From positions 1,984,001 to 2,048,000 of the forward strand of contig CM000154.2 in assembly GCA_000004695.1 (NCBI GenBank): a stretch of DNA of 64,000 bases, written 5' to 3'. Position numbers and translations under genes: made by a program. Position 1 is the stretch's first letter; each line of letters opens with the position of its first letter. The DNA is from Dictyostelium discoideum. Taxonomy: Eukaryota. This document shows positions 20,190 through 47,900 of this stretch, piece by piece. The notes under the pieces were generated by a model. It had not been told where the DNA came from. It made no database searches and saw only the letters and a program-made list of their open reading frames with translations.

Positions 20190-20245
<56 letters not shown>

Positions 20246-20638: not shown

Positions 20639-20673
<35 letters not shown>

Positions 20674-21462: not shown

Positions 21463-21537
21463 TTTATTTTTTGTTTTGGAAAATTATTTTTTTTTTTGGA
21501 AATTTTTTTTTTTAAAAAAAATGTTTAGGAAAAATTG

Positions 21538-21539
21538 AA

Positions 21540-21611
<72 letters not shown>

Positions 21612-21700
21612 AAATAAATTAAATAATCAAATAAATAAAAAAATAAATAAATAAATAAAATAAAATAAATAAATAAATAAATAAATATAAATTTCGAATA
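21538..21700. repeat. (AAAT)n microsatellite, ~35 units with a few interruptions
   Basis: aaataaataaataaat... run directly upstream of the ncfA-like start codon. Confidence 0.85.
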
Positions 21701-22805: not shown

Positions 22806-23411
22806 ATGAACACAAATGTAAGTTTTTTCTTTCTTTTTTTCTTTTTTTTTTTTTTTTTACTCACCTAAATTATATGTTGGTTTTAAAATGAAATTGAAAA
22901 AATAGAGAGTATTATTCTCAAAAGAGAATGTATTCGTTTACCCACCAGAGATTGAAAAGGGTATAAAAGGTACAATTTCATTATGTAGTTTAGATAAAGG
23001 ATCAATATTTTTATGTTGGATACCAGATATTGAAGAGAAAGAAGATGATCATTCATCATCATCATCATCATCGTCGTCAAATTTACAATCACCCAATGGT
23101 AAGAATCCATTAGCAGCATCGACAATCATTGAAATTGATGATCAAAATTCATGGGTAGTTAGAGTACATGTCAAAGAATTGAAATCAATTAAAAAGTATA
23201 CACCAAATATTGGTACTCCTTACATTATTATAACAAGTAAAAAAGGTACTGCTTTCTTTCCTTTCTTTTTTGAACATGGTGGCGTTAGAGAATTTTTAAA
23301 ATCATTATCTTCAATTATACATTTAAAAAAGTAAGTTATAACTATATATATATATATATAAATATATAAAATATATAAAAAATATATATATGGTATATAT
23401 ATATTAAAAAT

Positions 23412-23456
<45 letters not shown>

Positions 23457-24313
23457 AAAAGATCAAATTTAGATTCAAACTTTTTTACAGTTGTTGATTT
23501 TTCAGATCCAGTACAAAGAAGTTTATCAAGTATGAATTTATCAGATCATTTTTATAATAGTAATAATAAAGATGACTTATATAGTAGTAGTAGTAATAGT
23601 AGTAGTAATAGTGGTAATAGTAATAGTAGAAAACAAAAAGATCCTGTTATACCAGATTTTAATGATGATTTAACATTTGGTCATGATATGGATTTACATA
23701 ATCAAGATCAAGAAAAAGAAGATAGATATTCATTATTATCATCAACTAATCAATTAAAAAAAGCACAAGAAATTTCTGTATTATCATCACCACCCTCTTC
23801 TTCACATACAACTTCAATAAGTCCAACTTCAAATAAATCATCATCTTTTATTAATATTGGAAGTAATAATAATAATAACAACAACAACAATAATAATAAT
23901 AGTAGTGTATCATCATCACTTAGTAAATCAACAAATGGATTATCATTTTCATCAATATTATCAAGATCAACATCACCATCAGCTTCAACATCACCAATTC
24001 CAATTGAAAAATCAGGTAATAATAATGGTAGTAATAATAATAATAGTAGTAATATAACATCACCAATACCATCACCATCTTCTAAATTCTTATCAGCTAG
24101 TGGTGGTAGTGATAATGAAAATAATAGTAATAATACAAATAGTAATAACAATTCAAATAACAATGCAAACACTGGATCATTATCAACATCACCAACAAAT
24201 AAAAGAGCATTAAAACGTGAAATTTCATCAAGTATTTTTGATAATTTTGCAAAAGTAACACAATTAGCAAAATCTGCTCAAAAAAGTAAGTGTTTAATAA
24301 TAATTTATTTTTG

Positions 24314-24351
<38 letters not shown>

Positions 24352-25608
24352 AATATATTAAATATTTATTTAATTATAGATATTTTTGAAGAACCAGCAA
24401 AAAGAATTGATAATCATTTTAGAAATTTAATTGGATCAAAATCATCAATTGGTTCAAATTTATCACCACAAAATGCAAATAATCAATATTTTGATATATT
24501 GAATGAGAGTGGATCGTCATTGAATGCATCAAGTGATTATTTTACACCATTCAATATATCATCATTAAATTTCTCCATAGAGTTGGGAGCCAATAGAAGA
24601 GAGTGTAATCCAATGTCACCAAGTGAATGGTATTCCTATTTCGATGATGAAGGTAGAATTTGTTTAGCGAATCAACAGATTCTATTGAAAAAGATATTCT
24701 ATGGTGGTATTGAAGAATCAATTCGTCAAGAGGTTTGGCCATTCCTATTGGGAGTTTATTCATTCGATTCGACTTATTCCTCAAGAGAGGTTGTAAAATA
24801 TGAAAAAACTCAACAATATCAAACCGTTAAAAGACAATGGGAATCGATATCTTGTGAACAAGAGAGTAGATTCTCAAAGTATCAATCTAGAAAATTGTTA
24901 ATTCAAAAGGATGTTATTAGAACCGATCGTTTGCATCCAATGTTTATTCAGGGTGAGGATGATATCGATAGCAATGAGAATCTACGTCTAATGAGGGATG
25001 TCCTCTTGACTTATTCTTTCTTTAATTTCGATATTGGTTATGTTCAAGGTATGAGTGATTTACTCTCACCAATCATCTCGGTTATGGGTGGTGTCTCAAA
25101 AGAGGTGGAATGTTTTTGGTGTTTCAAAGGTTTAATGGATAGATTGGAGAGTAATTTTCATAAGGATCAAAATGGTATGCATCATCAATTATCTACACTT
25201 TCAAAGTTATTGAAATTCATCGATTTGGAACTTTACACTCATTTAGAGGCAAATAATGGTGGTAATATGTACTTTTTCTTTCAATCGGTTTTAATTTGTT
25301 TCAAGAGGGAATTCCCATTTCATGATGTACTCACACTTTGGGAAATACTTTGGAGTAATTATATGACAAAGAATTTACCAATCTTTATGTGTCTATCAAT
25401 TTTAATCAAAGAAAGAAATCAAATTTTAGATGAAAATATGGCTTTTGATCAAATCTTGAAATTAATCAATGAAAAAGCAAATAGAATGGATTTGGAAGAC
25501 ATTCTAGTCGATGCTGAGTCTATGGTTAGATATTTCATAATTAAACAAATGTCAATTGATACCGATAAAAGTTTAATTAAATTAAAAGAATCAATTTCAA
25601 TTTATTAA
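22806..25608 (+). CDS. TBC-domain Rab GTPase-activating protein (TBC1D15/Gyp7-like). Exons 22806..22817, 22906..23330, 23462..24285, 24380..25608
   Basis: Seen in sequence: a 4-codon first exon (ATGAACACAAAT) then GTAAGT; AG at 22904-05 opens RVLFSKENVFVYPPEIEKG...FFPFFFEHGG (TBC1D15 N-terminal domain); a GTAAGT donor at 23331 (phase 2); AG at 23460-61 restores the frame of ORF 23532; a GTAAGT donor at 24286 (phase 1); AG at 24378-79 joins the ORF 24499 frame. The TBC domain shows the IRTDR arginine finger and YVQGM glutamine finger. Confidence 0.7.
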
Positions 25609-26766: not shown

Positions 26767-27573
26767 ATGAATAATAATGCTAAATATTCATTTATTATTT
26801 TTTTAATAATTTTAATTTTAAATTTTTGTAATTGCCAAAATTATCAATATTTTGATTTTACAGATCATTCAAAATTAAATACATATGCAATAAATTCACA
26901 AATGGATCAATGTAATGTTAACGTTTTTTTTATGGCCTATACTGAAAATAACCCTAATGGTCCACCAGAAATAATAAATTTTATGTCAAAAGGTCCAAGT
27001 CCTTCAATTTCTCAAAATGTTATCTCAAGAAACCTAACAACTGTTTTTTATTCAGTTTTGTTAACTTTTGAATTTGGTGATTTGGAAGCCACATTTTTTG
27101 TTGACGATTCATATAATAATATAATTTATAATTGTTCTTGTAAAAGTATAGATTTTTATTATTATTATTATTATCTTTCTTTTTTCTTTTTTTTTTTTTT
27201 TTTAATTTATTAATTATTCATTTCCAAAATTTAATTTTTAATTTTTTTTTTTTTTTTTTAAACAAAAAAAGAAATTAATATTACAGATTTATCAATAGAA
27301 TATCAAACACCAGTTTTTTATACAGAATATACTAGTTTTGCTACTGTCTTTAAAGTTAAAGGTCTTCAATATCCATTAATTTTGGTACACGCCTATGGCC
27401 TTTATTCAATAACACCGATGGATAATTATTATTATTTATTAACAATAAATTCAAATTATTTTTTATATGAATCAAATGATTTATTAATTTCAATTTTGTT
27501 CCCAAATGATGAATCACTTGATTTTTCTTTAAATTTTTTTAGTAAGAATTATTAATAACTGACATTAGTTTAT

Positions 27574-27614
<41 letters not shown>

Positions 27615-28387
27615 TAACTGATTTTTTTTTTTTTTTATTTTTTTAAAAATTATAGTATCTACATCAACATTATATAGTGACATAATTAGTGACTTTAAAT
27701 TATACCCAGAAACTAAAAATTATACTGAAATTGCATTTAAACACGATCCATTGGTTACTTTTAGATCAGTTTTTTCAAAACCAATTCCACAAGTGTTTTT
27801 ACTATCTCAATCATCTTTTTTATTCTTAGCCAAACCAATTTATGGAACACCAGGAAACTTGACATATATTGCTTCAACAGTACAGACAACTGTTCCTCAA
27901 AACATCTCTTTGTTTTATCAAATTCCAGACAACACTTTTAAAAATATTTTTATCACTGAATTAATAACAAATAGTAAGTTATCTTTTATTTTTATTTTAT
28001 TTTATTTTATTTTTTTTCTTTATTTAAAATAAAAAGGTATTAATAAGTAATTACTTATAGTTGACACAGGGTCCAACATAAACAACAGTTTTCAAAAGAC
28101 TTTTATTTATAATAATCAAATATTCACATTTGAGTTATCAGATTTATTCAATTATGATTCAAAATGTTACTTTTTTTCTGGTAATTATTTAGGAACGGAT
28201 AATTCATATACCATAGTCAATGGTTTAACATTTCCATTTGGATTTGTAAATGGAAATAATAATGTATACAAAATGAATTTTACTACATTATTACCATTTG
28301 GTTTTGGTAGTGGATTTATTCTATCAATACATGAACCAGTTTCGGGAACCTCGGTTTCTTATCAAAAAATTCCATCTCTAAATAGTA

Positions 28388-28483
<96 letters not shown>

Positions 28484-31400
28484 TAAATTATTATAGATAA
28501 ACTAACCAAAAATTTTTATTTTATAAAAAAGTTGTAAATAATTCATTAACTTGTGAAATAATTTCTTTTGAATCAATTTATTTAAATGAATTTAAATTTT
28601 TATTAAGATTTCATGTTGTTTCATATTATGGTATTTCTTTGATATCAATTCCAACATTTAGACCAACATTTATTGGCAATGAAAATTTAGTATCAGGTAC
28701 AATTTATAATGGAGTTTGGGAATATATATATTTTGGTGAAGAAATAACTTTGGATAGAATTAAAATCATTTCACAATCTGGTCAAATTAAAGAAATTAAT
28801 TGTGGTGAACCTTTTTCAATAATAAATCCAAAACAAATTATAACAATTTCTAAAATTAAATTTAATGGTAATTATTTCATATATATTAATTCTTGTAACT
28901 ATACCACCACCTCCATCGTCATCACCATAACCACACCATCACTACTTTAATATTTATTAATAATGTTTATTATTATTTTTATTTAGGATTTAATTATAGT
29001 AATGATTTAAGTGATATATCATTCTTGTATAATAATGTAAATGTAACTAATCAAATGGTTTCAAATATTATGTATATAAACTTTACAAATATTGAAAAAT
29101 ATAAATATCAAACTATTGGTTTATATTTATTGGATTCAAAATCATTAAGGGATGAAAATTTCGATGGTTCTTTAGTTGGAAATTTTGATAAAAACATTTT
29201 TGGAAGTAAATATTATTTTTCAGATTTTGACCCAATTAATAATAGATTCCAAGTTAAATTTAATATTCCAGCAAATATTTTACCTGGAAAGTTAGATTTC
29301 ATATTAGCATTTTCTCAATCATTACGTATATATAGTCCATCTCTACCTAATAATTTCCAATTAAATATTACTTCATCATGTAAGTTTTTTTTTTTTTTTT
29401 ATTTTTTTTTTTTTATTTTTTTTTTTTTTCAATAATTTATTAATTCAATTTTTATTATTTTATTATTAAAAAGTAATTGATATTCAAGGACCAATTTTCA
29501 CAAATATTATTAAAAATCCAAATGGTAAATTTGGATGGATTGTTACTATTGAAGATTCAATAAATGGTTTAGATTATGGTATCATTTCAATATTTGGTTT
29601 ATTGGATAGTTCAACATACAATTTCACAATAAAACCATCAAATGCAATTAATGGTAATAAATGGAAAGGAGATTATGAAATATTTATTCCATATGATTCA
29701 GTATCAAAATGTATTTCTCAACAATATATGATTAAATTTGTTGAGCTTTTTGATAGTCAAGGTAATAGCGCTACATTTATAAAATATTTAAGAACAAGAG
29801 ATGGTTCAACAATTGTTAAAACATTGACAAATCCATTTATTAATTTTATGAATGATATAAATATTATTAAAATTAATTATACATGTCCAAATGAGGTAAT
29901 TAGTTCAGAATCACCACCTTCATTAATATCATTCACAATATCAAAAAGTTCAATTGATGTAGGTTTGATTAATACCGTTGATTTTAATTTCCAAGTAAAT
30001 GATTTGCTTGGAATTAAAGATTACCAATATCCAATAGTTTATTTAACAACTAGTAAACTTGATATAATTGAATGTGTTTCAAATTTAACTTCAAAATTAA
30101 CAAATCAATTTAAATGTTCAATTGAAATTCCAATTGGATTTGGATATCCAAATGGAATTTTAGTATCTGTTTATGGTTTTATAAATAATGGTGGTTTTTA
30201 TAGTGGCTATTGTTCTCAACAATTACTTGAAATGAATTTTGCAAGTTTCATATCAACTAATCAAACCTATACAATTAATCAACCATATATTAAAAGTTCA
30301 AATAAATTTTCCAATCAAGGTGGTACTTTATGGATTTATGGAAGAGGTTTTGCAATTGATTCAATTGTTGAGATTAAATTTAAAGATAATGGTTTCACTT
30401 CATTTACACAACAACAAACTAATTTAATTTATTCAAGTGCTATTTCAATTGAAAATGTTAGATCAACAAATCAACCATTTGTAGTAATAGTTAAATCATC
30501 TTCAAAAATTTCAAATGAATTTATAATTAATCCAATTCTTTTCAATTTTAATTATACAGATCCATCATCTACATCACCTTTACCTACAAATCCACCAAAG
30601 AAATGTTTGGGTAATCCAGAATGTGGTGGTGTAAATAATGGTTATTGTAATAATGGTATTGGATGCGTATGCTACACTCCATGGGTAGGTGAAGATTGCA
30701 CTTCAAAAGTTATTGTTATTCCTCAGCCATCGATTAATACAACAAACCCTACAACTGATATACCAATTAATGTTACAGATTCAACTCAAAATAATCTATA
30801 TAGATCATTAATTTCATTAGTATCATTAAGAGAATTAGATTTCAATAATAAACAAGTAAAATTATTTAATTTTGAAAAATGGGTATATTCAGAAATTAAT
30901 AATACAACAAACAAATATTTAACTACAATCTCAAATAAAAATAGTGTTGGTGAAATAGTTGAAACGAATATCACAGTAGTATTACAATGGTTTGAAAAGA
31001 ATGATACAGTAATATTTGCAGGTCAAACATTAAGAATGAATCCATCATCAATTAAATATACAGTTAATATTACAAGTTATTCATTCGCTCAAAATCTTAA
31101 CCATCTTCAATTGATTATGTCTGCATCATTACAATCCTCTAAAACTGATGATATATGCTCTTCAAAATTATTTGGTAATACTAGCGATGGCGATAATTCA
31201 AACTTTATGAAACTAAAAGTAAATGATCATTCAGTATATGGTAGATTTATTAAACGTGCAATTGTTGATAATAAAATTATCTCTGTCGATAATAATATAT
31301 TAGATGATTATTCAACGGATACAAATTCAAATTCTCATACATCTGAAACTTTTATTGGTATCTCAATTCCATTTTATAACTATAATGTATTGGTTGATCC

Positions 31401-31650
31401 TGATTTTTCAGTTTTAGTCGATTCTAATCCTTCATCTTCAAATGATGAAAATTCAATTTGCACATCTTCTTCAAAATTATCTAGTGCTCAATTAGCTGGC
31501 ATTATAATTGGTTCGGTTGCATTTGCTGCTATATTAGTATTTATTGCATCATATGCAATTATTCAAGGTAGAAAAGAAAGAAAATATTTAAATGATATGA
31601 ATAATAAATTATCATCAATGAATAAAAATGGAACTTCTGGGGGTGATTGA
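26767..31650 (+). CDS. secreted/type-I membrane protein, paralog A: signal peptide, IPT/TIG-like domains, EGF-like module, C-terminal TM (Tgr-like surface protein family). Exons 26767..27145, 27272..27541, 27656..27973, 28061..28384, 28532..28867, 28987..29379, 29474..31650
   Basis: Seen in sequence: all six introns are phase 1, with GT donors (GTATAG, GTAAGA, GTAAGT, GTAATT, GTAATT, GTAAGT) and AG acceptors. The frames agree with ORF-track ORFs 26767, 27751, 28273, 28639, 29025 and 29602. QPYIKSSNKFSNQGGTLWIYGRGF is an IPT/TIG signature. CLGNPECGGVNNGYCNNGIGCVCYTPWVGEDC is EGF-like. GIIIGSVAFAAILVFIASYAII is a TM helix followed by a short basic tail. Confidence 0.6.
28386..28492. repeat. (TAT)n microsatellite (~35 units) filling intron 4 of paralog A
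   Basis: GTAATT donor followed by tattattattatt... up to the acceptor region; it is translated as poly-Tyr in ORF 28273..28500. Confidence 0.8.
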
Positions 31651-32291
31651 AAAAAAAAAAAAAAAGAAATCTAAAAATAAAAAATTAAAAATAAAAAAAA
31701 TAAAAAATTAGAAAATAAAAAATTAAAAATAAAAAAAAATAATATTATGATAACAATAAAAATTAAACTTTTATTATAATTGCCCCCAAAAAAATTTTTT
31801 ATTTTATTTTTAATAAAAATTATTAACCCATTAAAAAATTTTTTTTAGCCTATACAAATTCAAAACCAATTAAAAAAAAAAAAAAAATATCTTTTTTTTA
31901 TTTTTTTTTTTATTTTTTTTTTTTCTTTTTGATTTAATCAAAAATATCTTTCTCATAGTCAAAATCAAAAGAAAAAAAAAAAATATAAAAAAAAATCATA
32001 TTATCGTCATACTCGAATCTCTTTATTTTTCAATAATATTTAGATATTTAATAAAAATCTAAATTTTTTTTTTTTTTCTAATATTTTTTTTTTTTTTTGG
32101 TAGACAGAACCATATTAATTGGTATTATTTTTGTTTATTTTTTTAAAATGATTTTTCTTGTTTTTAATTTTTTACTATTTTTTTTATTTTCTTTTTTATT
32201 TAATATCTAAAAAAAAAAAAAAAAAAATAAAAAAAAAGAAAAAAAAAAAAAAAAAAAAAATCACCTATTATCCAAAAAATACCAAACTAAT

Positions 32292-33470
32292 ATGAAACAA
32301 ATTTTAAAGTCATTATTAATATTTTTAATATTTTGGATAAACAATTTTTGTTTATCTCAAAGATCCTATGTTTTTTTAGACTATACAGATCCATCTACAT
32401 TAAATACATATCCTCCAACATCAAATGATGACCAATGCAAATATTTTATTAAAATTTTAGTATCAGGACAACTTCCTCCTGACTCATTAGATTTCGATGG
32501 AAATAATATAATATATCCAAATATTGTATTAGCCTCAAATAATGAAACAGCTTCTTTATTCACTGTTAGTTTTATTAGTGAATATGGGAATTATTTTATA
32601 TCTTTAGGTGTAAATCCTTGGGGAGAAATCTCCTATAATTATAGTTGTATAGGTATTTTTTAATTTTATTTTATTTTATTTTATTGTATTTTTTAATATA
32701 AAATGTGATATTAATTTTACTTTTTTTTAATAATTTAAATTTTATTTTTTAGAAATTGATAAATCAAAAATAAATGTTGAAACAAATAAATTATATTTTT
32801 CAGAGTATACAAATTTTGCATCATTTTTTAAATTAGATGGTTTAATATATCCTTTGGAATTATCATATGATCAGAATTTATATTCAATTTCAAGTTTAGG
32901 AAATTATTATTATTTAGTTAAATTCAAAACAATTGCATATATTAACTCTCAAACGAATCCATGGAGAGTTGATATTTTATTTCCAGGGTCAACAATGATA
33001 TCTATTTTTTTTAATGATTATAATGGTAAATGTTTTGAAAAACTAGAATAAATAAATAATATTATAATTTTTAAATAACTTTTTTTTTTTTTTTTTAAAA
33101 TTCCAATTCTATATAGAATCTATACCAGAAATAGATTCTCAAGAGATTGTAGATATTCAGTTACGTCCAACAAATGAATTTTATTCAGAGATGGGTTTTC
33201 AACATGGGCCATTAACAACTTTCAAATCAACTTCAAAAGCATTACAAACTCAATTATTTTTTTGGGATATGCAAGGTTCATTGCACTTAATGGCAAAGCC
33301 ATTATTTGGTATACCTGGTAATTTAACATACACCGTTTTAACTTTTCCATCTCTTCAAAATATAAATTATTCATTATCCTACCCAAATAATAATAATGGT
33401 TTTACAAAAGGTTTTGTTAATTCTCTTTTAACAAATGGTAAGTTAGCTTTTTTTTAAAAAATTTTATTTT

Positions 33471-33527
<57 letters not shown>

Positions 33528-36500
33528 TTTTTTTTTTATTAAAAAATTAAAATTAACACTTTTTTATATAGTTATATATGGAGGTAGTATTAATGATGGC
33601 GCTGCAACATTATCCCACTATTATGATAACAGTTCACTGTTAAATATTTACAGTGGAGGTTATTTTGGTTTAAAAAATTATAGTTCTAAATATTTTTATT
33701 ACAGTTTTCAACAACGTTCCTCAGAAGAAATAGGAGTTAGTTTACCATTTCCATTTGGATTTGTGTGGGGTAATAACAGTTATTACCATATGAATGTTTC
33801 AAAGTTATCATCATTATATTTAGCAGATGAATTTACTTTGATTTTTAAAGATCCTATTACTGGTCAAGAGATGAAATTAGCCAATATTATACCTGTTAAT
33901 ATAGGTAAATAAATTATTTTTAATCTTTTTTAATATTGAAATTAACCTTTTTACTAATTTATTTTTTTTCTTACAAGTCACAAATTATGATTTTCCTGAA
34001 ATAATAAATTTTCAAACGATTGATATTGGTAAATTCAAATTTATAGTAAGAATTAATATAAAATCACAATGGGGTGTGAATTTCTTTTCTATTGATCCAA
34101 TTGAACAAATTAAAATTATTATAAATCATGAACATTTAATTAGTGGTACAATATATAATGGAATTTGGGAATTTACACTTAATGGGTTGATTGAACAATA
34201 TGAAAAAATTACATTGGTCACTTTATGTGACAGCTTTCATTTGTTTTATTTTGGTGATTTATTCTCAATTAATTATCCATCAGAAACTATAAATTTACCA
34301 AAAACAAAATTTAAGAGTATGTAATTTACATTAAATAGATATTAAATTATTTAATTATTATTTAAAAAATATTAAATTTAAAATAATTATTTATTTATTT
34401 ATTTTTTAATTAGATTTCAATTACATTAAAGATTTGAAAAATATTTCTTTCTTTTATAATAATATTTCAGCAACAAATCAAACAATTTCAAATATTATGT
34501 TTTTAAATTTTACAAATATTAATGATTATAAAGATCAAACTATTGGTTTAAATCTAATAGATTCGAAATCTTTAAGAGATTTAACCTATGATAGTTATTT
34601 TGGAGCAGGTGGTAGTTTAAATGACGCTCAACTAAAACAATATTATTTTGCAGAGTTTGATTCAGTAAATAATCAATTCCAAATTCGTTTTAATATACCT
34701 GCAAATACAATTCCAGGAAGATTAGATTTTGTATTATCATTTTCAAACAAAGTTCATATATATAGTCCATCTTTACCAAATAGTTATCAACTATATGTAT
34801 ATCCATTAAGTGAGTTTTATTTTAGTTATTTACAAAAAAGAACAATTGTCTTATTTTATTTTATATTAATATTGTTTATTTTTTTTATTATTAAAAGATA
34901 TTGATATACAAGGCCCAGTTTTTACAAATATTATTAAAAATCCAAATGGTAATTTAGGATGGCTTGTTACAATTGAAGACAGTGTCAATGGTTTGGATTA
35001 TGGTGTAATTTCAGTTTATGGTTTAATTGATAGCTCGACATATAACTTTACAATTAAACCTTCAAATGCGGTTAAAGGTGATAAATGGAAAGGAGATTAT
35101 GAAATTTATCTTTCAAATTCTATTTGCATTACACAAGATTACATAATTAAATTTGTACAACTTTTTGACACTCAAGGAAATAGTGCTACCTTTATAAAAT
35201 ATATGGATTTATCAGATTCAGGTCCTATATTTTTTAGAACTATTACAAATCCATTCATATATTTTTACAATGATACAAATATTAATAAGATTTCCATTAC
35301 TTGTAAAAATGAAATTTTTGGTTCAAATTCTATACCACCACAATTATTATCATTTTCTTCCTCAACAAGCCAATTGGATGTTGGATTAATCAATAAAGTT
35401 GATTTTGATTTTGATTCATTTGATGATTTAGGTATTAAAGAAAATCAATTCCCAATTGTTTATCTTTCAACAAGAAAATATGAAACCATTCAATGTATTT
35501 CAAGAAACACTTCAATTTTTGATAAATCTACAAGATTTAGATGTTCAATTGAAATTCCAATTGGATTTGGATATCCAAATGGAATTTTATTATCAGTGTA
35601 TGGTTTTATAAATAATGGTGGTTATTTTAGTGGTTTTTGTTCACAACAATTACTTGAAATGAATTTTTCAAATTTTATCTCAACTAATGGCACATTTACA
35701 CTTGATCAACCATATATTAAAAGTTCAAATAAAATTTCAAATCTTGGAGGTAATTTATGGATTTTTGGTAGAGGTTTTGGAGTGAATTGTACTGTTTGGG
35801 TAAGATATATTGATGATATTGGTTTTAATCAATGTGTAACAACAACGATTTATTCAAGTTCAATTTTAATTGCAAGAATTAAACCAACCAATAACTCCTT
35901 TACCATTGTAATTAAAACTCAATCTACAAAGTCAAATGAATTCATCATCAATCCAATTGGATTTTATTATAATTATACTGCACCTACTTCACCTCCTTTA
36001 CCTACAAATCCACCAAAGAAATGTTTGGGTAATCCAGAATGTGGTGGAAGAAATAATGGTTATTGTAATAATGGTATTGGATGCGTATGCTACACTCCAT
36101 GGTTAGGTGAAGATTGTACTTCAAAAGTTATTGTTATTCCTCAACCATCAACAAATACAACAAACCCTACAACTGAAATACCAATTAATGGAGGTAATAA
36201 TACAAAGGATAATAATCTATATAGATCATTAATTTCATTAGTATCATTAAGAGAATTAGATTTCAATAATAAACAAGTAAAATTATTTAATTTTGAAAAA
36301 TGGGTATATTCAGAAATTAATAATACAACAAACAAATATTTAACTACAATCTCAAATAAAAATAGTGTTGGTGAAATAGTTGAAACTAATATCACAGTAG
36401 TATTACAATGGTTTGAAAAGAATGATACAGTAATATTTGCAGGTCAAACATTAAGAATGAATCCATCATCAATTAAATATACAGTTAATATTACAAGTTA

Positions 36501-37047
36501 TTCATTCGCTCAAAATCTTAACCATCTTCAATTGATTATGTCTGCATCATTACAATCCTCTAAAACTGATGATATATGCTCTTCAAAATTATTTGGTAAT
36601 ACTAGCGATGGCGATAATTCAAACTTTATGAAACTAAAAGTAAATGATCATTCAGTATATGGTAGATTTATTAAACGTGCTATTGTTGATAATAAAATTA
36701 TCTCTGTCGATAATAGTATTTTAGATGATTCAATAAATCCAGATTCAAATTCTCATAAATCTGAAACATTTATTGGTATCTCAATTCCATTTTATAGTGA
36801 TAGTGTATTGGTTGATCCTGATTTCTCTCTCCTTATCGATAATAGTCCCGCATCTTCAAATGATGAAAATTCAATTTGTGCATCCTCTTCCTCAAAATTA
36901 TCAAAAGTACAAATTGCTGGTATTATAATAGGTTCGGTTGGTTTTACTGCTGTGGCCATAATTTCAACTATTTACATTATTAGAAAAAGAAAAGAACAAC
37001 AAACAATTATAAACAAAATGAAGAGAGTTAGCCAATCAGTGAATTAG
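32292..37047 (+). CDS. paralog B of the same surface-protein family. Exons 32292..32652, 32753..33025, 33117..33437, 33572..33904, 33978..34316, 34414..34809, 34898..37047
   Basis: Same seven-exon, all-phase-1 architecture as paralog A. The frames agree with ORFs 32292, 32854, 33191, 34076, 34434 and 34993. It has a signal peptide MKQILKSLLIFLIFWINNFCLS, an IPT/TIG motif, the EGF-like CLGNPECGGRNNGYCNNGIGCVCYTPWLGEDC, and the TM GIIIGSVGFTAVAIISTIYII. Confidence 0.6.
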
Positions 37048-37391
37048 CCATCAAAAAATAAAAAAATAAAAAAAAAAATAAAAAAAAAAATAAAAAATAA
37101 AAAAAATTAAAAAAAAAATAAAAAAAAAAAAATCTCAACCTACACAGAGAAAACCTCGCACACACTTTCACAAAAACCTCCGAAATCTCAATCCAAAAAA
37201 AAAAAAAAGTGTTTCTATTTTTGCGACCAATCAAAATGAAACTGTTTTTTTTATTTTAATTGTTTTTTTTAATTTGAAAATTTTTTTTTTTTTAGCACAA
37301 TGTCCTATAAGACATTTTTTTTTATTTCAATTGATGTTTTTTTTTTTTTTTTTTTTTCAATATTTTTAAAAGTATTTAATCTTTTTGTAAA

Positions 37392-38131
37392 ATGATAAAG
37401 AATTGTTTAATTTATTCTTTTATTTTTTCATTACTATATTATAATTATTTCATATTTGGAGAAATTTTAAATAACCAAGATTATAACTGTATAAATAATA
37501 TATTTCAAAAAGCTGGTATTAGTACCGAAAATGATACCACTTTAGGTTATTACGATTTTTGTAGCACTAATCACATTGAATGTAATGGTAATAGTGTAAC
37601 TTCAATGTAAGACTAAACAAATAAAAAATAATAGTAATAATAAAAAAAAAAAAAAAAAAAAAAAAAAAGTTGAATTTCCATTGTATTAATAAAATTAAAA
37701 ATATAATAAAAGAACACTACAACAAAATATTGAACCATTATATTATACAGATTTTAATTGTTTTAAAAACCCTTTATACAATGTAAATTTTAATGGATCA
37801 ACTATTTCTCCAGATCTATTCACAACATCTCCAGGGTTTAGTTATAGATTACAATTCTTTTCATGTGCAAACATTTATATTAATCAACCAGTACCTTTAC
37901 AAACAAAAGAAATTTATATAAATAATTTAATTGAAGAATTGAAAACCAATATATCTTTTTCAAAAATCAAATCATTGAATTCCTTTATTATGTATATGAC
38001 AAACCCCTATGTACCATATAATTATCCTTATTTTTTAAATGATGTAGATTTTTACATTCCACTAAACCAATTAGTTATTTATTCTTTAAACGTACCTTCT
38101 TTTACATTTTTAAATCCATCCCAAGTGTAAT

Positions 38132-38180
<49 letters not shown>

Positions 38181-41051
38181 CTTTTTATTAATTTAATCAT
38201 TAAATAATTATTTTAGTGAAATTACATTGGGTAAAGGTTTTGATATTTCTTCATTGTCTAATTTTAATGATGTATCACATTTCAATAATTCATGCTCCAT
38301 TTCATTAAAAGTTTTGGAGGGATCAATATCAAGCTTCCCATTTTCTAAAGCAAATAATCTTTTAAAATCTGTGTATGTTACATTACCCGAATAGCTTTTT
38401 ATAATTTTATTTTCTATACTAATATTTTTTAAAAAACAGAACAATACAAAGCTATATTGATAAACCTTTGAATTTAATTGATTTGAGTAACTTAAAAATT
38501 ACATCTTTGTAAGTATTTTTTTTTTTAATAATAAATATAAAATCGAAAAATATTAATTTTCAATTAAAAGAATAATGTCAAATGTTTCAAATTTATTCAA
38601 CATTAACAACGAAATACCATTTACAAATTTTCCTTCAACAATTCAAACATTGTAGGTATTTTTTAAAATAAAAAAAAAAAAAAAAAAAATTTAATTTCTA
38701 ACAAACTCTTTGTGTTTAACCAAAAAAGCAATTTTTTGGATGGAAAGATTAACAGTATTCCTAAAAATATAAATGTAGAATTTATTTCATTTAGAAATAA
38801 TTCAATGAGTGGTCCAATTGGTAAATTAAGTCAATTTGGAAGCAATGTAAAAAATTTGTAAGTTTATAAAAAAAAAAAAAAAAAAAAAAAAATAAAATAT
38901 AGTAAATTATTAATTTTCTTTTGGATATTACGAAAAATTAGATTTATTTCAATGAATAAATTAAGTGGAACAATTGACGAATCATTTTGTGGCCTTCATG
39001 ATTATGATTTCTCAAATAATTCATTTACCAGTGTTCCCAAATGTTTTAGTTGTTTCTTCCCAAAAGATCCTAATTATGGTTCAGAATTAAAATCAAAATT
39101 TGTTACGAATCAATTTGATGCAAGTCAACCTCAAGGTAAGGTTTTTTTAATTTTTAATTTTTTTTTTTAAAATTTGTTAGGTTGTTTTTAACATTTCCTT
39201 TTTTAGACTGTAATGTTGTATTAAATTTAGTTTTAGAAAATGGATTATTAAAATTGTTTGGAGATTTCGTAGGATTATATAGATATGGATTCAATTCACA
39301 ACCAAACAATGTGGATTGGGTTTGGAAAAACTATACATATTATATTGGAACACCAAAACAAGGAACAACAATACCAGATCTTATTAGTTTTAAATATGAT
39401 TTCTATGAAACAAATTTCACATTATTTACATCATCAACCCCACCAAAAATTAAAACAGTTGAATCATTTCCTGCTTCAACCACATTTACATTCAATGGTG
39501 AATACTTTAATTATAATATTTCAGAGACAAATGTAAAAATAGGTAATAAAATTTGTAATATAATTTCAACAGAATTTTCAAAGATTGTTTGTTCAGTTGA
39601 TGAATTATTTGATTCGTCATTAAAAGATTTAATAACAACCATTCAAGTTGGAAATTTGAAACAACAAATAACTGTAACACCCTATATCATGAACACAGTA
39701 ATTCAATGTAATGATAGTTGTGATGGTGTTTGTTATACTTCCAATGGTACATGTGCTTCAATAGCGTTTTATGTTTCATCAGTTGTTCCAATTCAAGAAA
39801 ACACCGAAGGAACAGTACAGCTCTATGGATCATTTGGAGAAATTCATAATGATTTATCAATTACTATTGGTGGTTCTATATGTAATAAAACATATATTGA
39901 TGCTGGTTTAATTAATTGTACATTAAAAGCAGTAGGAAGTGGTATAAAACTATTGAATGTAACTCAAAATGGTAATTCATGGATTAGTAAATCAATGTTT
40001 AGCTATTTACCACCAAATACCGTTAAAAATTGCCCAAATAATTGTTTTTCAAATTTAAATCAAGGAGTTTGCAACACATCCCTAGGCCAATGTGAATGTT
40101 TCCAAGAATATAGTGGAATAGATTGTAGTCTCTATAGAGGTGGAAATCATCCAGAAACAACTAATGATGTAGATGAAAATACTGGTAAATCTACCTTATC
40201 AAATAAAGAAACTAATTATGAAATAGATATTATACAATTATTAGAAGTTGATATAAATGATAAAATCGTTAATAACTATTCTCTTGAAAACAATTGGAAA
40301 TTAAAAAATGTAACAAATAGTAAAACATTTTTCTTTTCCCAAAAAATTCAAAATTCAAATTGTGAATTAATTTCAATAATAGATCAAATTAATAGTGATC
40401 AAAGATTATCTTTTGCAGGTGTTGATTTTTATATTCAATCTGGAGCTATTAAATTAACCATTTCAATTAGTAACTATACATATTCAAGCTCTTTAAATAC
40501 ACTAAAACTTCAAATGAAAACAATTGCCAATCAAGAATCCACAAATTGTAATACCAAATCAACAGATATTGATACAAGTGGTATAGTTACAAATTCAACT
40601 TTAAATTATGTTACAATCAAAAAGAATAACAAAGTTTTAGTTGGTAGATTTATTAATCGTGTCTTATCAGATGGTAGATCTACATTTATCACTTCAAATG
40701 TTGTATCAACAAGTGATAAAGAATCTTTAATATTACAAGTTAATTTACCCCATTGTGTTTCAGAGTGTGTCATAGATCCAGGTAAAGTTTTTTTTTTTTT
40801 TTTTTTCCTATTAAAATAATTAACTATTATTAATGATAATTTTTAATATTTTCTTTTTAGATTTCTCATTACTAGTTAGCCCAGATTACATTGACAATTG
40901 TTCAACGAAAAGAAAATGGGTTATACCAGTTGCAGTTGTAGTTAGTGTAGTTGGCGCAGCATTTTTAATTGGACTTTCAATAATTATATATAGAAAGAAT
41001 CAAATAGCAATTAGAATTAAATTATCAACTATTAGATTATCAAAAAAATAA
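37392..41051 (+). CDS. related type-I membrane protein, paralog C, with plant-type leucine-rich-repeat ectodomain followed by IPT/EGF-like region and TM. Proposed exons 37392..37606, ~37713..38126, 38217..38372, 38440..38508, 38571..38651, 38729..38857, 38942..39135, 39207..40791, 40861..41051
   Basis: Seen in sequence: signal peptide MIKNCLIYSFIFSLLYY. The small exons encode LRRs (LSNLFNINNEIPFTNFPSTIQT; FLDGKINSIPKNINVEFISFRNNSMSGPIGKLSQFGSNVKN; MNKLSGTIDESFCGLHDYDFSNNSFTSVP). The large exon has IPT-like repeats and the EGF-like CPNNCFSNLNQGVCNTSLGQCECFQEYSGIDC. The last exon encodes the TM WVIPVAVVVSVVGAAFLIGLSIIIY. Donors are GTAAGA/GTAATA/GTATGT/GTAAGT/GTAGGT/GTAAGT/GTAAGG/GTAAAG with AG acceptors. 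The middle exons are the least certain. Confidence 0.5.
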
Positions 41052-41269
41052 AAATAAAAATAAAAATAAAAATAAAATGTATTTTAAAAGTTATTTGTTT
41101 ATTAAATTATATTTACAATAGTTTTTTTTTTTTTTTTTTAATTTTTTTTTTATTATTAATTCTATTTTTAAAAAAATTTTATAAATATGTTTTATTGTTA
41201 TTATTATTTTTATTACTATTATTATTATTATTATTATTATTATAATTATTATTATTATTTTTATTATTA

Positions 41270-43079
41270 TTATCTACCACTATGACCAATTGTAGGACTT
41301 GAATAAATATAAGTATGAGAATTTGCATCTTCTTTAATAGATTCTAATTTTGCTTCATTTGATTCAGAGTAAAAAGTTTCTTCATGGTCAACAGTTGATG
41401 AAGATAATTCTTCTTTGATCATTGGTGGGAGAGATTGAGATTGTGGTTGTTCTTCAAGTTTTAGCTTACTAAAAGATCTCTTTAATTGAGTTGGTGTACT
41501 TGAATTTGTGAAATCTCTACTGAATTTTCTGACACTCTTTACGGATATATTTAATTTAGAATCATCATACTCTGGTATTTTATTTGAATCAAAGTTTGGA
41601 TCATTTTTGAATTTATCGACGACAGAGTCAACTCTTTTATCACGTTCATCCCAATATTTACCATTAAAGTCCCAACGATAACCATATTTTGAATCTTCTC
41701 TCTTTGAGAAATAATTTGGTTTCCAAATTTCTTTTCTACTTTCTCTAGTCTTTCTTTTTTCTCTTTCACGCTCTTCAATTTTATTTTTCTCTTTATTTGC
41801 AAGTTTATTCTCTTCTCTCTCCAAGTAAATTCTATCCATACGAACTCTTGAATCGGTGGAGGGTAAAACTGCTTGATATTCTTTAGACATTTCATTTAAG
41901 CCTTGAATCCATTTACCATGCTTCCATTTATTGAAATTCTCGGGTGGTTCAATTGTAGCTTCCCAAAGTGTAATCTCACCAGAACTCTTACGAGATGGAC
42001 CTTCAGAGTGTTTCTTTGCTTTGACATATTTATCCCATTTACCATTAATATGTACACGTGCATTACCCTTTGAATCAAGAATTTCACCTTGTACTTTTCT
42101 TTGAGTACCTTCGAACCAACCAGACTTTTGGAAATTTATAATGGCTTTCTCACCAGTGTTATGATTCTCTACTATTAAGTCACCATAGTGTTCTATCCAC
42201 ATCTTTCCAAATATAATATTATGACAAATTGCGGATGGAACCTTCCAAGTGAAATGTTCACCAGTAGAATTTAAATATAAATGATTTTGACCATGACTGA
42301 AAACATCTAATGAATTACCCCAGAATTTTGTAGTAATCCATGATTCTTGTTGTAAATCGAAAATTTCACTTGTAGTTTGAGCAATACCAATTGGTGGATG
42401 ATGTGAAACTTGTTCACAAAATGATTTATATCTACCTTGTTTATCAATATATTCAAATGTCTCTCCCAATAATGGATTAAATGGTTTTGCTTTAAAAAAA
42501 AAAAAAGAAGGAAAAATAAAAAAATAAATTAGTATTTATAAATTTTAAAAAATTATTAAAATAATAATAATAATAATATTTACCAGTTCTTGTATATGAA
42601 CTAAATACAGCAATATTAAAAGCGGTTAAATACATTAATCTATCGATTGAATCAGAACAAGTTGAAGCTTTTTCAATTAATTCTACAAAACGTAATGGTT
42701 CTAATTGACATTCTAAAACGGTTAATGGTTCAAAAAAGTAGACTGGTAATGAAACCAAAGACATTGGATCCTTTCCAACTAGACCACCAACTTTTTTCCA
42801 TAATGATTTTTTATCTTCTGGAGCGGATTCGGCATCACCTATTTCATTACCAAAATTGTAGTCATCCAATGTATCGATTTGTTCTCCAATGTTTGGTTCA
42901 CCTCTTTTATCATATGAGTCGGATAGAGAATTACTATCGTCACTGTAGCTACTTGCAGTATCTGGTACAACTTGGTTGCCATTCATATCATATTTACCAA
43001 CAGGTGATTCAGATTTGGATTTTCTTGAACTCTTTGGAGTACCATCCTTTTTAACTAACTTTTTGAAAAAATTTGACAT
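41270..43079 (-). CDS. oxysterol-binding protein (OSBP/ORP) family member, short form without PH domain. Exons 43079..42584 and 42489..41270 (~571 aa)
   Basis: Seen in sequence: the OSBP fingerprint EQVSHHPPI and KPFNPLLGETFEY span the intron (GTAAAT donor rc of 42578..42583, AG rc of 42490..42491, phase 1). This is consistent with ORFs 42492..43079 and 41270..42469. Confidence 0.8.
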
Positions 43080-43763
43080 TATTAATTTTTTTTACCAGAG
43101 GTACCTTATAAAGTATTTAATTAAATTTATTTAAATTTTAATTTAGATTTAGATTTAGAGTTTTTTTTTTTTTTTTTTTATAAATTATTATTTTTATTTT
43201 TATTATTATTATTACTGGTGTTATGGAAAAGTTTTTTTTTTTTTTATTATTAAAAAATATTAGTTTAATTTAAAATATTTGGAAATAAAATTCTTATAAT
43301 TTTTTTTTTTAAAAGATTTTATTTGAATTAAGAAGATTGTGTTTTTTTATAAATATAAATTTTTTTTTTTTTTTTTTTTTTATTTTATGATTTTTAATGA
43401 TGCAACAAAATATAAATTAAAGTTTAAAAATAATTATTAAAATAAAAGTTTATTATAGTTTTTTAAAAAAAAAAAAAAAAAATTAATTTAACTAAAAAAT
43501 TATTTATAAAACTTTTTTTTTCTCAAACCAGGTCTGTGTACACGAGGTTTGTGGGGAAATTTGACTTTTTTTTTTTGAAATTTTTTGTTTTCGAAAAAAA
43601 CAGAAAAAATGGGAACTATTTTGATTTGTTTTAAGTTTTGGATACTGTTTTCTATTATTTTTTTTATTTTTTTTAATTTTAAAATTCGAATTTGAATGTG
43701 ATGTGTCCTGTGTTTCACAGTTTTTCACTAACTGACTTACATTAGTTAAATTTAATTTTTTTG

Positions 43764-43798
<35 letters not shown>

Positions 43799-44466
43799 TA
43801 AAAAAATTAATTTCTTTTTTTTTTTATTATTTTTTATATTTTTTTATTATTATTTTTTTTTTTTATTTTTTTTTTATTAAAATTATTATCAATTTTTTTT
43901 TTTTTATTAATTTAAATAATATTATATGAGTGTATATTTACTATGATTTATGAAATTTAAAAAAAAAAAAAAAAAAAAAAATTTGGAACAAGTCTTTCAA
44001 ACCTTCTTTGTTTAAAAAAAAAAAAAAAAAAAATTTAATATTAAATTTTTTTTTAATTGTAGATCACTATTGAATAGATCCATTGCATTTTATCTTAATG
44101 AATTTAAATTTTATTTATTTTAATTTAAATTTTATAGATTTAATTTAAATTTAATTTAAAATTTTAAAATTTTTATAGATATATATAGAAATTGTAAAAA
44201 AAAAAAAAAAAAAAAAAAAAATTTAAAAAAAAAAAAAAAAAAAATAAATTAAAAATAAAAAAAAAAATAAAAAATAAAAATAAAAACTAAAAATAAAAAA
44301 AATTTAAAAATAAATAATTATTTTTAAAATTAATTAAAAATAGAAAAATAATTTATTAATAAAAAATAAATAAAATCGAATTAAAATAAAAATCTGGACT
44401 TTTTAAAGTACCAGGACAACAATTAATTTACCTTTTTTTTATTTTTATTTTTTTTTTTTTTTTTAT

Positions 44467-44899
44467 TTATTTTTTATTTGATTTTTTGGACTTTGTCTTA
44501 TTTTCAACAGCAACAACAAGTTTCTCTTTCTCTTTCTCTTTCTCTTTTTCTTTTCCTTTAGTTACTTGTTCTTTTCCTTTTATTTTTGTTTTTGCTTTTT
44601 CTCTGTCTCTTTCTTTTTCTTTTTCTTTATCTCTATCATTTGTACATAAAGCAAATAAATCGTTTGACATTGATAAGAGTGAGGAATATTTAATTTTAGA
44701 AGTTGTTGATAGTTTTAATTGTTTTAATTGTTCATCCTCTTCATCACTATTATCAATGTTTTGTTGTTCATCATCTTCATTCAAACTAACAAAACTTGGT
44801 AATTGTGATATAAAATTGATTAAAATTGTAGTTAATGGTGATAAATCAATTGATTCTTTGTAAAAATAAAAAAAATAAAAAAAAAATAAAAGAAATTAG

Positions 44900-44937
<38 letters not shown>

Positions 44938-47900
44938 TGATAAAATAAATTATTGTTGTTATTATTATTATAATTAAATAAACTTACTTGAATTTAAATT
45001 TAAATTAATAATAATTGAAATTAAATTTAAAGAATAATAAATTGATTTTTGATTCATTGATTGAGTATTTACATAAGAGGTTAAAAAGTGACCAATTTGA
45101 TTTATACATGGTGAAGATTTTGAAAGAGTTTGAATGATAAATTGACAAGAAGGTGGTAAAGATCCTGAATTTTCAAGTAGATCCAATTGTTCAGAGAAAT
45201 CTGGTTCTAGATTTAAACATTTTGAAAATTCTTTAAAAATTTGTTGTTCAATTAAAGATTTAATTATAACATTTAATAAACCTTTTTGATTAAATAATAA
45301 TAAATATTCTGATAATTTAAAGAATGATAAATATTTGTTATTATTATTACTATTATTATTATTATTATTATTATCAATATTATTATTATCAATATTCTTT
45401 TTAATAATTGGACAATAATTAATATTATCAAATAATTTAAATAATAAATTTTGAGAGATTTCTTGTAATCTTGGATCACCACCACCATTTAAAGAATGAT
45501 TCATTAATTGAGTTGAAAATTTTGCAACGATTGGTATAATTTCATTGAAACCAGTTAATGAAAAACCTTTGATAATCTCTAAAATCTTTGAAAATTCTAA
45601 ATAAAATTGGTTACATGAATCTGATGAAAATAAACCAAATGCAATACTCTCTGATAAAACCAATAAATAACATTGTAATATTTCAGTGATAAATAATTTT
45701 TCATTTTCTTTTAAAATAAATTGATCAAGTATTTCATTTTCATTTTCATTATCATTTTCATTATCATTATCATTTTCATCATCAGTTACATCTTGATCAC
45801 CATTTTCTTTTTCAAAATTCTTTCTTTTTCTTTTATTATTAATTAATTGTTTTTTTGTAAACTTTTGTAAAATTTGAATTAACAATTTACCAAAATCAAA
45901 AATATCACTAAAATAACCAGAATCCTTATTAATGTTTTCATTTAAACCTTCACTATGAAACAAGATTTTTGTATAAATGGTAAAACTTGTTACCAATAAA
46001 TTTCTATTAATCTTTAAAAGTATTTTTTTATTTATAATTTGATTCTCTGATTTTTCATTTTCTTTATTTTCTTCACTTTTATTTTCATTTTCATTTTCTT
46101 CTTCTTCTTCTTCTTTCTCCTTTTCATTTATTTTTATTTTACATTCAATTTCTAACCTTTTTGCAATAATTGGTAAAATTGATTGAAAACTTGAAATCAT
46201 TTCACCAAAAATTTCATCTTCATTTAAAACTTGAGCTCTAGATTGATCATTTTTAAACAATATATCTAAAAAAACCATTGAAATTGTTGCTTTTTCACAA
46301 ATTTTTTCAAAACTCATTTCTTTTTCTTCTTCTTCTTCTTCTTCATTTTGATTATCTTCATTATCATCATCATTATCATCGTCTTGTTTTTTATTACCTT
46401 TCTTTTTCTTTTTATTTGATTCTCTTTTTCTTTTTGATTGTTTTTCTTTTTTATGATGTTGTTGTTCATTTGATTCAAATAATTTTTTAAATGGTAATTT
46501 AATTGAATCTAAAATAATTTTTAAAACTTGTTTTGGTAATTCCCAAGAGAATAAACTTAATAAAAGTGTTTCTTTTAAAAGATCTGGTGTAGTTGAATCA
46601 ATTTCTTGAAAATTTTGTAATAGTAATTCTTTTAAAGTTGGGAAATTCTCTAAAGAGAATTGTGATGCAATTTTAATGATTTTACACATTCCTTCAACTC
46701 TTGGTATATTTGCAGAGAATAACCAAACATAAATACTCGTAATATCATCATCATTAAAAACTTGTAACATTGATGATTTAGTTTTTTGAAATTCTTCTTT
46801 CTTTGAAAATAATAATGGTTTTAATGAATTTAAAATTAATGAAATAATTTCTAATATTGATTCAAAATCTTCCACTGATACACCAACATCTTCTTCTTCA
46901 TCATCTTCATCTTCATCTTTTTCTTTTTCTTTTTCTTCATTATTATTTTCTTTTTTATTTATTTGTAATGAAATTGGTAATTGATTAATTTCAATATTTT
47001 GAGTACTAAATTTAACTAAATAATTAAATAAAGTACAAACGAATTTTGCAACCGATAAAACTGGTACGAAATTAACCAAATTTGAATAAAAAGAGAAAGC
47101 AGCTTGTTTTTTTGATTTAAAGAATTGAATACAATTATTTACAAGATCCCATTTCTTTGCATCGGATGGAAAATAAAGTTCAACTATTAATTGAGTGAAT
47201 TTCTTTGATAATCTTTGATTTTTATAATCTAATATCATTCTCTCTAAAAGATGATCCACTGGTACGATATCAAAGAAACGAATTGTTGAAATTCCTTTTA
47301 TGAATAATAATAAATCTGCAAATGATTCTCTAACACGTTCAGATTGATCATGAATTAGATTTCTTAAATTTGGTAATAAAACACGTAATGTTGAATGAGA
47401 TAAAGAATTGTCTAATAGTAATCTAACACCAATGAAAATCTGTTCCCTAACTGAATTTGATGATTTATCAAATGCCAACTCATTGATTAACTTTGATAAT
47501 AGACCACGAGAATTTGATAATGGTATAAGTTCCCAAAATTTAGAGAGTACTTCAAAAGTACCCTCAATGGCAACCACTCTAACTTGAATTGAAGGATCTT
47601 CAAATAGGTCTTTTAACAATTTGAACTGTCTATTCAATTCAGTGTCAATCTCCTCCTGTGTATCATCATTTGATTTCTTCAATGGGAATGAGTCATAGAA
47701 TAGTCTAGCGGCATTGGTACGAACTTGTGGATGTGATACCGTTAACGATCTGAATAAAATAGGTTCATACAATCTATACAACATGGGGTCCACTTCTTTA
47801 TATGGTTTCTGGTTATGAAAGTAATGTAAAAACCCATTTAAATTCTTTGAAAGTTTCATATTTGAGCAATGAATTGCCACCTCCATTAGATTCTGTAAGC

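Follow-up and report, generated by a model that had tools for sequence, protein, structure and literature searches.

Three genes, here called A, B and C, stand in tandem on the plus strand of a 64,000-nucleotide (nt) stretch of Dictyostelium discoideum DNA (contig CM000154.2, positions 1,984,001 to 2,048,000; hereafter the window, numbered from its first letter). We put a probability of roughly 0.7 on the reading that they are three separate, functional genes for type I transmembrane glycoproteins of a dictyostelid ComC-like family. The G+C content of the window is ~21%, and between 26.7 and 41.1 kb the plus strand consists of long open segments broken by short A+T-rich gaps. A bacterial-style listing of open reading frames, tried as a source of gene models, yielded exon fragments only. 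For the models used here, frame-keeping GT-AG pairs were enumerated and picked where they were homologous between A and B, and the junctions of C were read directly.

26767-31650, plus strand: gene A, XP_636537.2/Q54IE0, 1398 amino acids (aa), 7 exons
26767-27145, 27272-27541, 27656-27973, 28061-28384, 28532-28867, 28987-29379, 29474-31650, plus strand: exons of A (splice analysis)
32292-37047, plus strand: gene B, XP_636538.2/Q54ID9, 1390 aa, 7 exons
32292-32652, 32753-33025, 33117-33437, 33572-33904, 33978-34316, 34414-34809, 34898-37047, plus strand: exons of B (splice analysis)
37392-41051, plus strand: gene C, XP_636539.2/Q54ID8, 1007 aa, 9 exons
37392-37606, 37713-38126, 38217-38372, 38440-38508, 38571-38651, 38729-38857, 38942-39135, 39207-40781, 40861-41051, plus strand: exons of C (junctions read directly)

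Spliced in this way, the A, B and C proteins match the D. discoideum AX4 proteins listed with them residue for residue (exact-sequence look-up), and all three bear the same public name, ‘EGF-like domain-containing protein’. The genes are already annotated in the AX4 reference and their domains are already in Pfam; the new points are modest, namely a gene-conversion tract, the loss of C in one lineage, two annotation fusions and a GLMP-like fold. An earlier sequence-only reading of the window had placed three same-strand genes at exactly these spans and had given A and B an identical seven-exon, all-phase-1 structure, and both statements hold: the six introns of A (87-147 nt) and the six of B (73-134 nt) are all phase 1 and lie at homologous positions. 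The introns of C (62-106 nt) have phases 2, 2, 2, 2, 2, 2, 1 and 1. Intron 4 of A (28385-28531) is mostly an (ATT)n microsatellite of ~90 bp, which differs in length among isolates and, being open in the exon frame, reads as a long poly-Tyr run.

A, B and C all begin with a hydrophobic leader and contain one six-cysteine EGF-like motif and one near-C-terminal hydrophobic segment (hydropathy and sequence inspection), in each case followed by a basic tail of 19-28 aa; N-x-S/T sequons number 21-29. The signal peptide, single EGF-like module, one C-terminal transmembrane segment and short tail named by the sequence-only reading are thus present in all three. Domains were called by running Pfam on the spliced proteins, with cut-offs of 24 bits for ComC_SSD, 20.9 for TIG, 27 for LRR_ComC and 22.1 for EGF_2.

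26767-29379, plus strand: exons 1-6 of A, signal peptide (aa 1-23), then six predicted beta-sandwich modules, one per exon
28555-28845, plus strand: DUF7743 of A, in exon 5 (Pfam, 34 bits)
29476-29889, plus strand: DUF7035 of A
29917-30267, plus strand: DUF7034 of A
30268-30558, plus strand: TIG-like domain of A
30604-30699, plus strand: EGF-like module of A, aa 1051-1082 (Pfam DUF7949, 51.3 bits; six-cysteine pattern)
30772-31416, plus strand: ComC supersandwich domain of A, aa 1107-1321 (ComC_SSD, 61.7 bits)
31483-31563, plus strand: transmembrane segment of A, then a 28-aa tail (hydropathy scan; helix at residues 670-717 of the AlphaFold2 (AF2) model of the last exon)
33995-34255, plus strand: DUF7743 of B (Pfam)
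34900-35307, plus strand: DUF7035 of B (Pfam)
35338-35688, plus strand: DUF7034 of B (Pfam)
36022-36117, plus strand: EGF-like module of B (DUF7949, 53.1 bits; six-cysteine pattern)
36172-36834, plus strand: ComC supersandwich domain of B (ComC_SSD, 68.6 bits)
36907-36981, plus strand: transmembrane segment of B (hydropathy)
37750-38993, plus strand: leucine-rich repeat (LRR) domain of C, aa 85-372, exons 2-7 (Pfam LRR_ComC, 74.8-77.1 bits)
39443-40018, plus strand: TIG domains of C, two stretches, aa 499-563 and about 603-690 (Pfam TIG, 27.9-31.3 bits)
40031-40126, plus strand: EGF-like module of C (six-cysteine pattern; EGF_2, 16-18 bits, below threshold)
40157-40874, plus strand: ComC supersandwich domain of C, spanning the last intron (ComC_SSD, 220.5 bits)
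40914-40994, plus strand: transmembrane segment of C (hydropathy)

The ComC supersandwich domain (PF22933) scores above its gathering threshold in A, B and C, and in each protein the EGF-like module lies directly N-terminal to it. At ~215 aa, between the EGF-like module and the transmembrane segment, it is the largest conserved domain and the one that names the family, and it does not appear in the sequence-only reading, which had likened the array to the Tgr (allorecognition) family. A word-index search gave 25 significant homologues, all from Dictyostelium species except for one EukProt entry (P0016). ComC_SSD is carried by 23 of them, and the other two (P0015 and P0016) carry DUF7035 and DUF7034; TIG-only proteins of the Tgr type number 0 of 25 in this search, in which Tgr was set apart by family definition rather than by direct sequence comparison. 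For ComC itself, the literature gives EGF domains, a signal peptide and a transmembrane segment, with conservation limited to group 4 dictyostelids (PMC4931340), in line with the species from which the present homologues come. It is the sole family member with a tested function: a comC mutant aggregates aberrantly (PMC2873529), and the gene is cited as one that matters for intercellular communication (PMC8865844). ComC has the supersandwich domain, EGF-like module, signal peptide, single transmembrane segment and short tail in common with all three proteins, whereas its LRR head and TIG domains are shared only with C, the one protein in which the ComC-type LRR head (PF24141) scores above cut-off; A and B have DUF7743, DUF7035 and DUF7034 beta-sandwich domains in place of the LRR head. 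On these domain matches, A, B and C are assigned to the ComC-like family and not to Tgr.

The comparison with Tgr has some substance. Were the array a Tgr-like allorecognition locus, its products would be polymorphic surface proteins that tell kin from non-kin, and the signal peptide, Ig-like repeats, single transmembrane segment and short tail would all fit, as would the TIG domains of C. TgrB1 and TgrC1 are likewise type I membrane glycoproteins with Ig-like/TIG beta-sandwich repeats and a short cytoplasmic tail, and theirs is likewise a genome-clustered, dictyostelid-confined gene family. By definition, however, Tgr proteins span the membrane and are built from IPT/TIG and E-set repeats (PMC12745789; bioRxiv 10.1101/2025.10.22.684067); the EGF module and supersandwich domain present in A, B and C fall outside that description, A and B give no Pfam TIG match, and no Tgr protein is among the significant homologues of the word-index search.

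Within the array, A and B are 56% identical across their full length (BLASTP), whereas the match of either to C is limited to about 290 residues at 28% identity. Profile comparison of the A/B family with the C family by hhalign returned a single alignment (A 939-1364 with C 603-983, probability 99.9), which runs from the beta-sandwich before the EGF-like module (equivalent to the second TIG domain of C) through the EGF-like module, the supersandwich domain and a D-P-D-F-S juxtamembrane motif to the transmembrane segment. Because this one alignment covers the stalk only, the three proteins have a common membrane-proximal stalk and wholly different heads, and C is a distant family member rather than a recent derivative of A or B. 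To say, as had been proposed, that C replaces the N-terminal exons is fair shorthand, with the proviso that C is a distant member whose homology to A and B is confined to the stalk. The cysteine spacing of the EGF-like module was previously taken to be conserved throughout. A and B have C-x5-C-x7-C-x5-C-x-C-x8-C, whereas C has C-x3-C-x8-C-x6-C-x-C-x8-C; the first half differs, and what all three have in common is the second, G-x-C...G-(x)-C-x-C-x5-G-x-D-C.

In A and B, Pfam scores are about 117 bits for DUF7035, 108-117 bits for DUF7034 and 51-53 bits for DUF7949, a 35-residue EGF-like module. Neither protein has a Pfam LRR match, and on that ground the two are classed as a separate subfamily with DUF7035 and DUF7034 and without LRRs. 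Nor does either match TIG in Pfam at E <= 0.05; each has one TIG-like domain, which profile-profile comparison and structure reveal but the Pfam model does not. The IPT/TIG-like repeats that the sequence-only reading ascribed to all three proteins therefore survive as two domains in C and one in A and B, the remaining modules being loosely Ig-like.

AF2 models built on family alignments are all-beta for A 1-680 (mean predicted local distance difference test (pLDDT) 68.6, with residues 319-436 poor) and all-beta with a long C-terminal helix for A 675-1398 (mean pLDDT 72.5), and place helices at the N-terminus and at the transmembrane segment. The strand blocks of the first model match the limits of exons 1-6, and the predicted arrangement is one beta-sandwich per phase-1 exon. 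This layout of one domain per symmetrical exon, which extends over exons 1-6 of A (26767-29379) and of B (32292-34809), is the one seen in the shuffled Ig-like modules of animals. Foldseek searches of the Protein Data Bank (PDB) with both halves of A matched nothing but tandem Ig, FN3 or complement-MG domains, those of pIgR, contactin, C3/C5 and fibronectin among them. For the supersandwich domain, the top structural match is GLMP, the glycosylated lysosomal membrane protein (PDB 8r8q_B and 6nyq_C), at a sequence identity of about 9-10%; next nearest, at 4-12% identity, come galactose-mutarotase-like domains from glycoside hydrolases and phosphorylases. GLMP, an accessory subunit of the MFSD1 transporter, resembles A, B and C in having a single transmembrane segment and short tail after the domain and heavy N-glycosylation. 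By contrast, there is no sign of homology at the sequence level, and GLMP is lysosomal and without EGF, TIG or LRR domains.

The head of C is built differently. Exons 2-7 (414, 156, 69, 81, 129 and 194 nt) code for aa 72-419; the introns among them and the one before exon 2 are phase 2, and the intron after exon 7 is phase 1. An extra intron lies just upstream of the transmembrane segment. Six exons do encode the LRR head, as had been reported, but with sizes of 69-414 nt not all are very small. The description of the repeats as plant-type calls for a similar qualification. The plant-specific LRR subtype is marked by regular 24-residue repeats of the form L-x-x-L-x-L-x-x-N-x-L-S-G-x-I-P behind an LRRNT_2 cap. 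In C, the final repeats contain F-R-N-N-S-M-S-G-P-I and I-S-M-N-K-L-S-G-T-I, which are instances of the plant-type N-x-L-S-G-x-I; the x-N-x-(L/M)-S-G-x-I motif of plant LRR receptor kinases is confined to the three or four repeats that end the domain, and as in plant receptor kinases and receptor-like proteins a cysteine-containing cap stands ahead of the first repeat. All seven PDB sequence matches of the region are ectodomains of plant LRR receptor kinases, all weak (E 0.01-0.85). Among generic LRR models run on C, LRR_8 and LRRNT_2 were unmatched and LRR_1 alone appeared, at 7.9 bits; none passed. Unlike the plant proteins, C has no kinase domain, and most of its LRR domain (aa 85-275) is irregular. 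The plant-type likeness thus appears real at the level of the motif only.

To examine polymorphism, which the sequence-only reading had expected between isolates, the syntenic locus was taken from four isolates (L001-L004) that by their accessions are part of a published genome collection (PMC12745789). Two of them, from the tropics, remain within D. discoideum in that paper, the other two may be cryptic sister species, and all are diverged from AX4 genome-wide (PMC12745789). Synonymous divergence (dS) and the ratio of nonsynonymous to synonymous divergence (dN/dS) were estimated between AX4 and each isolate by the Nei-Gojobori method, for whole genes and in 100-codon windows.

A: dS 0.09-0.18, dN/dS 0.16-0.25
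B: dS 0.11-0.23, dN/dS 0.22-0.33
C: dS 0.06-0.11, dN/dS 0.19-0.24
Flanking genes (Cupin_8, TPR and RabGAP-TBC): dS 0.07-0.14, dN/dS 0.01-0.44

A, B and C are under purifying selection. Reading frames are intact wherever checked, and since the dS values of the three genes are like those of their flanks, their synonymous divergence is that of the local background. The idea that the high divergence among isolates is specific to this locus was rejected, because the flanking genes have the same dS and the isolates are diverged genome-wide (PMC12745789). Against the isolates labelled D. discoideum, dS is 0.07-0.12 even in flanking genes (16800-41600 compared with L001-L004); the literature figure for species-wide diversity in D. 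discoideum, ~0.003, is far below this, and the flanking dS agrees with the conclusion of the source paper that the tropical isolates are diverged lineages (PMC12745789). Tgr-like diversifying selection was also rejected, as dN/dS never exceeds 1 for whole genes or in any 100-codon window; the maximum, 0.85, belongs to codons 1-100 of C, a window of low dS. In A and B, windows in the distal halves give 0.3-0.5 and those in the proximal halves 0.04-0.25.

The arrangement of the array is conserved as well. In the order A-B-C, the genes lie between the RabGAP-TBC and oxysterol-binding-protein genes in D. citrinum (L007), D. dimigraforme (L006) and D. firmibasis (L005); in L001-L004 and D. citrinum the array is at the same site and its genes are called separately, save in L003. 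The three have been kept 1:1:1 and syntenic as far as D. firmibasis, a divergence put at 50-100 million years by the authors of the genome collection (PMC12745789), and do not behave as a birth-and-death cluster. Within the window, no further paralogues were found by tblastn. The upstream neighbours (16953-25608) are a Cupin_8 gene, an intronless minus-strand TPR gene and the RabGAP-TBC gene, and those downstream (41270-48270), on the minus strand, are the oxysterol-binding-protein gene and a condensin-2 subunit gene. All are of housekeeping type, and the order of the flanking genes is kept in all genomes examined.

Two departures from this pattern deserve comment. First, C is lost from L003 (‘D. 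cf. discoideum’), in which 2865 of 3021 coding positions are gaps and the interval between B and the oxysterol-binding-protein gene (L003:20222-20600, syntenic to 37048-41270) retains only relics of the 3' ends of exons 2 and 9. Second, public annotation merges B and C into one protein of 2337 aa in D. dimigraforme (L006:15552-24983) and of 2323 aa in D. firmibasis (L005:15449-24200). A fused B-C gene in these species was ruled out: the stop codon of B (...Q-S-I-N-stop) and the start codon and leader of C are conserved in both, from which it follows that the merger is an annotation artefact. The fused calls are worth correcting in both annotations.

These data bear on two of the rival explanations. 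An allorecognition locus would be expected to vary, and the faster evolution of the distal domains and the variable presence of C, which is absent from one isolate, could be taken that way. Nevertheless, identity to AX4 across the four isolates is 91.5-96.6% for A, 89.8-92.9% for B and 94.8-96.6% for C, or 89-97% overall; for TgrC1 and TgrB1, the paper on the collection to which these isolates belong reports 65-70% and 80-90%, respectively (PMC12745789). With dN/dS of 0.16-0.33, dS equal to that of the flanks and strict 1:1:1 syntenic orthology to D. firmibasis, the array is without the hypervariability of tgrB1 and tgrC1 and, bar the one loss of C, without birth-and-death turnover; moreover, it is a same-strand tandem, whereas tgrB1 and tgrC1 form a head-to-head pair with a shared promoter (bioRxiv 10.1101/2025.10.22.684067). 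We regard a kin-recognition role of the Tgr kind as very improbable. That the genes might be decaying or functionless tandem duplicates draws on the L003 relics and on the absence of a published function for A, B or C among the papers found. Intact frames, splice-consistent models, dN/dS of 0.16-0.33 for A, B and C when AX4 is compared with the four diverged isolates, and orthologues in the same order to D. firmibasis leave this explanation with next to no credibility, and for A and B constraint refutes it.

A further feature separates the stalk from the heads. Genomic A and B are 45-75% identical over most of their length, and one 470-bp tract, with 1 mismatch, is the exception.

30790-31259, plus strand: conversion tract, copy in A, 470 bp
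36211-36680, plus strand: conversion tract, copy in B, 470 bp

In eight genomes (AX4 and L001-L007), any one genome has 1-8 nt of difference between its two copies. Comparing the tract across genomes gives 8-21 nt among discoideum-clade isolates, and 32-38 nt to D. citrinum, 51-56 nt to D. dimigraforme and 59-70 nt to D. firmibasis. In a control stretch 450 bp upstream of the tract, sequences group by gene, the pattern expected of orthologues. When identity is profiled within each genome, the homogenised block has one and the same position, with similar boundaries, in 8 of 8 genomes. The tract does gather substitutions between lineages, which means that the identity of its copies within a genome needs more than purifying selection to account for it. 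The pattern points to gene conversion that has recurred for as long as the clade has existed and that is limited, within the supersandwich domain, to about aa 1113-1269. With conversion confined to 470 bp, the stalks of A and B stay near-identical there while the heads diverge. Homogenisation with similar limits across the divergence of D. discoideum and D. firmibasis would also be compatible with identity that is held by selection, and not only by chance conversion, so that both proteins present the same surface to a shared partner in cis; we consider this unlikely enough to offer only as a conjecture.

How might such proteins work? Common to all three is a stalk consisting of a TIG-like beta-sandwich, the EGF-like module, the ~215-aa supersandwich domain, a transmembrane helix and a 19-28-aa tail. 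The stalk is topped in C by an LRR solenoid and a TIG domain, and in A and B by a rod of some eight additional beta-sandwich domains, of which the first six have a phase-1 exon each. We infer that the proteins are cell-surface binding proteins in which the faster-evolving distal head would bind a ligand displayed by another cell or by the matrix. Since a tail of this length is too short for catalysis, any signal would pass through a cis partner held by the conserved stalk. By analogy with comC, A, B and C may act in cell-cell adhesion or communication. The earlier suggestion of a self/non-self or adhesion role is reasonable for adhesion or communication and very unlikely for allorecognition.

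Other functions can be envisaged for the same architecture. Galactose-mutarotase-like domains often bind carbohydrate. As these are the folds closest to the supersandwich domain after GLMP, the proteins could be non-self or carbohydrate receptors of vegetative or sentinel cells, with bacteria or glycans bound by the C LRRs, the A/B rods or the supersandwich domain; the LRR head of C, the faster evolution of the distal domains and the loss of C in one lineage would suit such a role. Fold likeness at 4-12% identity, however, says nothing about a sugar-binding site, and comC, the only characterised relative, has a developmental phenotype, and we hold this proposal to be unlikely, though it is the foremost of the alternative functions. 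More doubtful still is a role as GLMP-like accessory subunits, in which the supersandwich domain, transmembrane segment and tail would pair with a multi-pass transporter or channel, possibly endolysosomal, and the heads would protect or regulate that partner. The topology is the same (a heavily glycosylated domain, a single transmembrane segment and a short tail), and the near-identical portion of the supersandwich domain in A and B could be where both bind a common partner; yet GLMP has no EGF, TIG or LRR head, and an extracellular rod of 700-1000 aa better suits the cell surface.

The assignment to cell-surface, ComC-like proteins has several points to its discredit. The apparent tie to ComC runs through Pfam models that are named after ComC. 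In C, the modest LRR_ComC score (75 bits on a 288-position model) and a Beta-sand_ComC_2nd (PF24143) match of 24.2 bits, below its threshold, suggest that C is probably a paralogue of comC rather than comC itself. A literature search on the six accession numbers found no papers naming A, B or C. The AF2 models are of moderate quality at the mean pLDDT values given above, with A residues 319-436 badly modelled. GLMP, the best structural match, is lysosomal, and an endolysosomal instead of a plasma-membrane location may apply to A, B and C too. Finally, the loss of C shows that this gene is dispensable at least in the lineage that lost it. The identification of C as comC itself is disfavoured by its modest ComC-model scores; cluster look-ups of ten relatives returned no protein named comC.

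With those points set against it, the ComC-like reading changes how the array should be labelled, from ‘Tgr-like, polymorphic’ to ‘ComC-like, conserved’, and steers searches for allorecognition genes away from it. The tract shared by A and B is a clean natural case of partial concerted evolution inside one domain, long-lived and sharply bounded, and within the uncharacterised supersandwich domain it may point to the portion that matters. The GLMP-like fold of that domain leads to a testable idea, that short-tailed proteins of the ComC family could signal via a membrane partner. If selection does hold the tract identical, A and B would belong to a receptor set with a shared stalk and divergent heads, in which the supersandwich domain would serve as the docking module for a membrane partner, as GLMP does on MFSD1.

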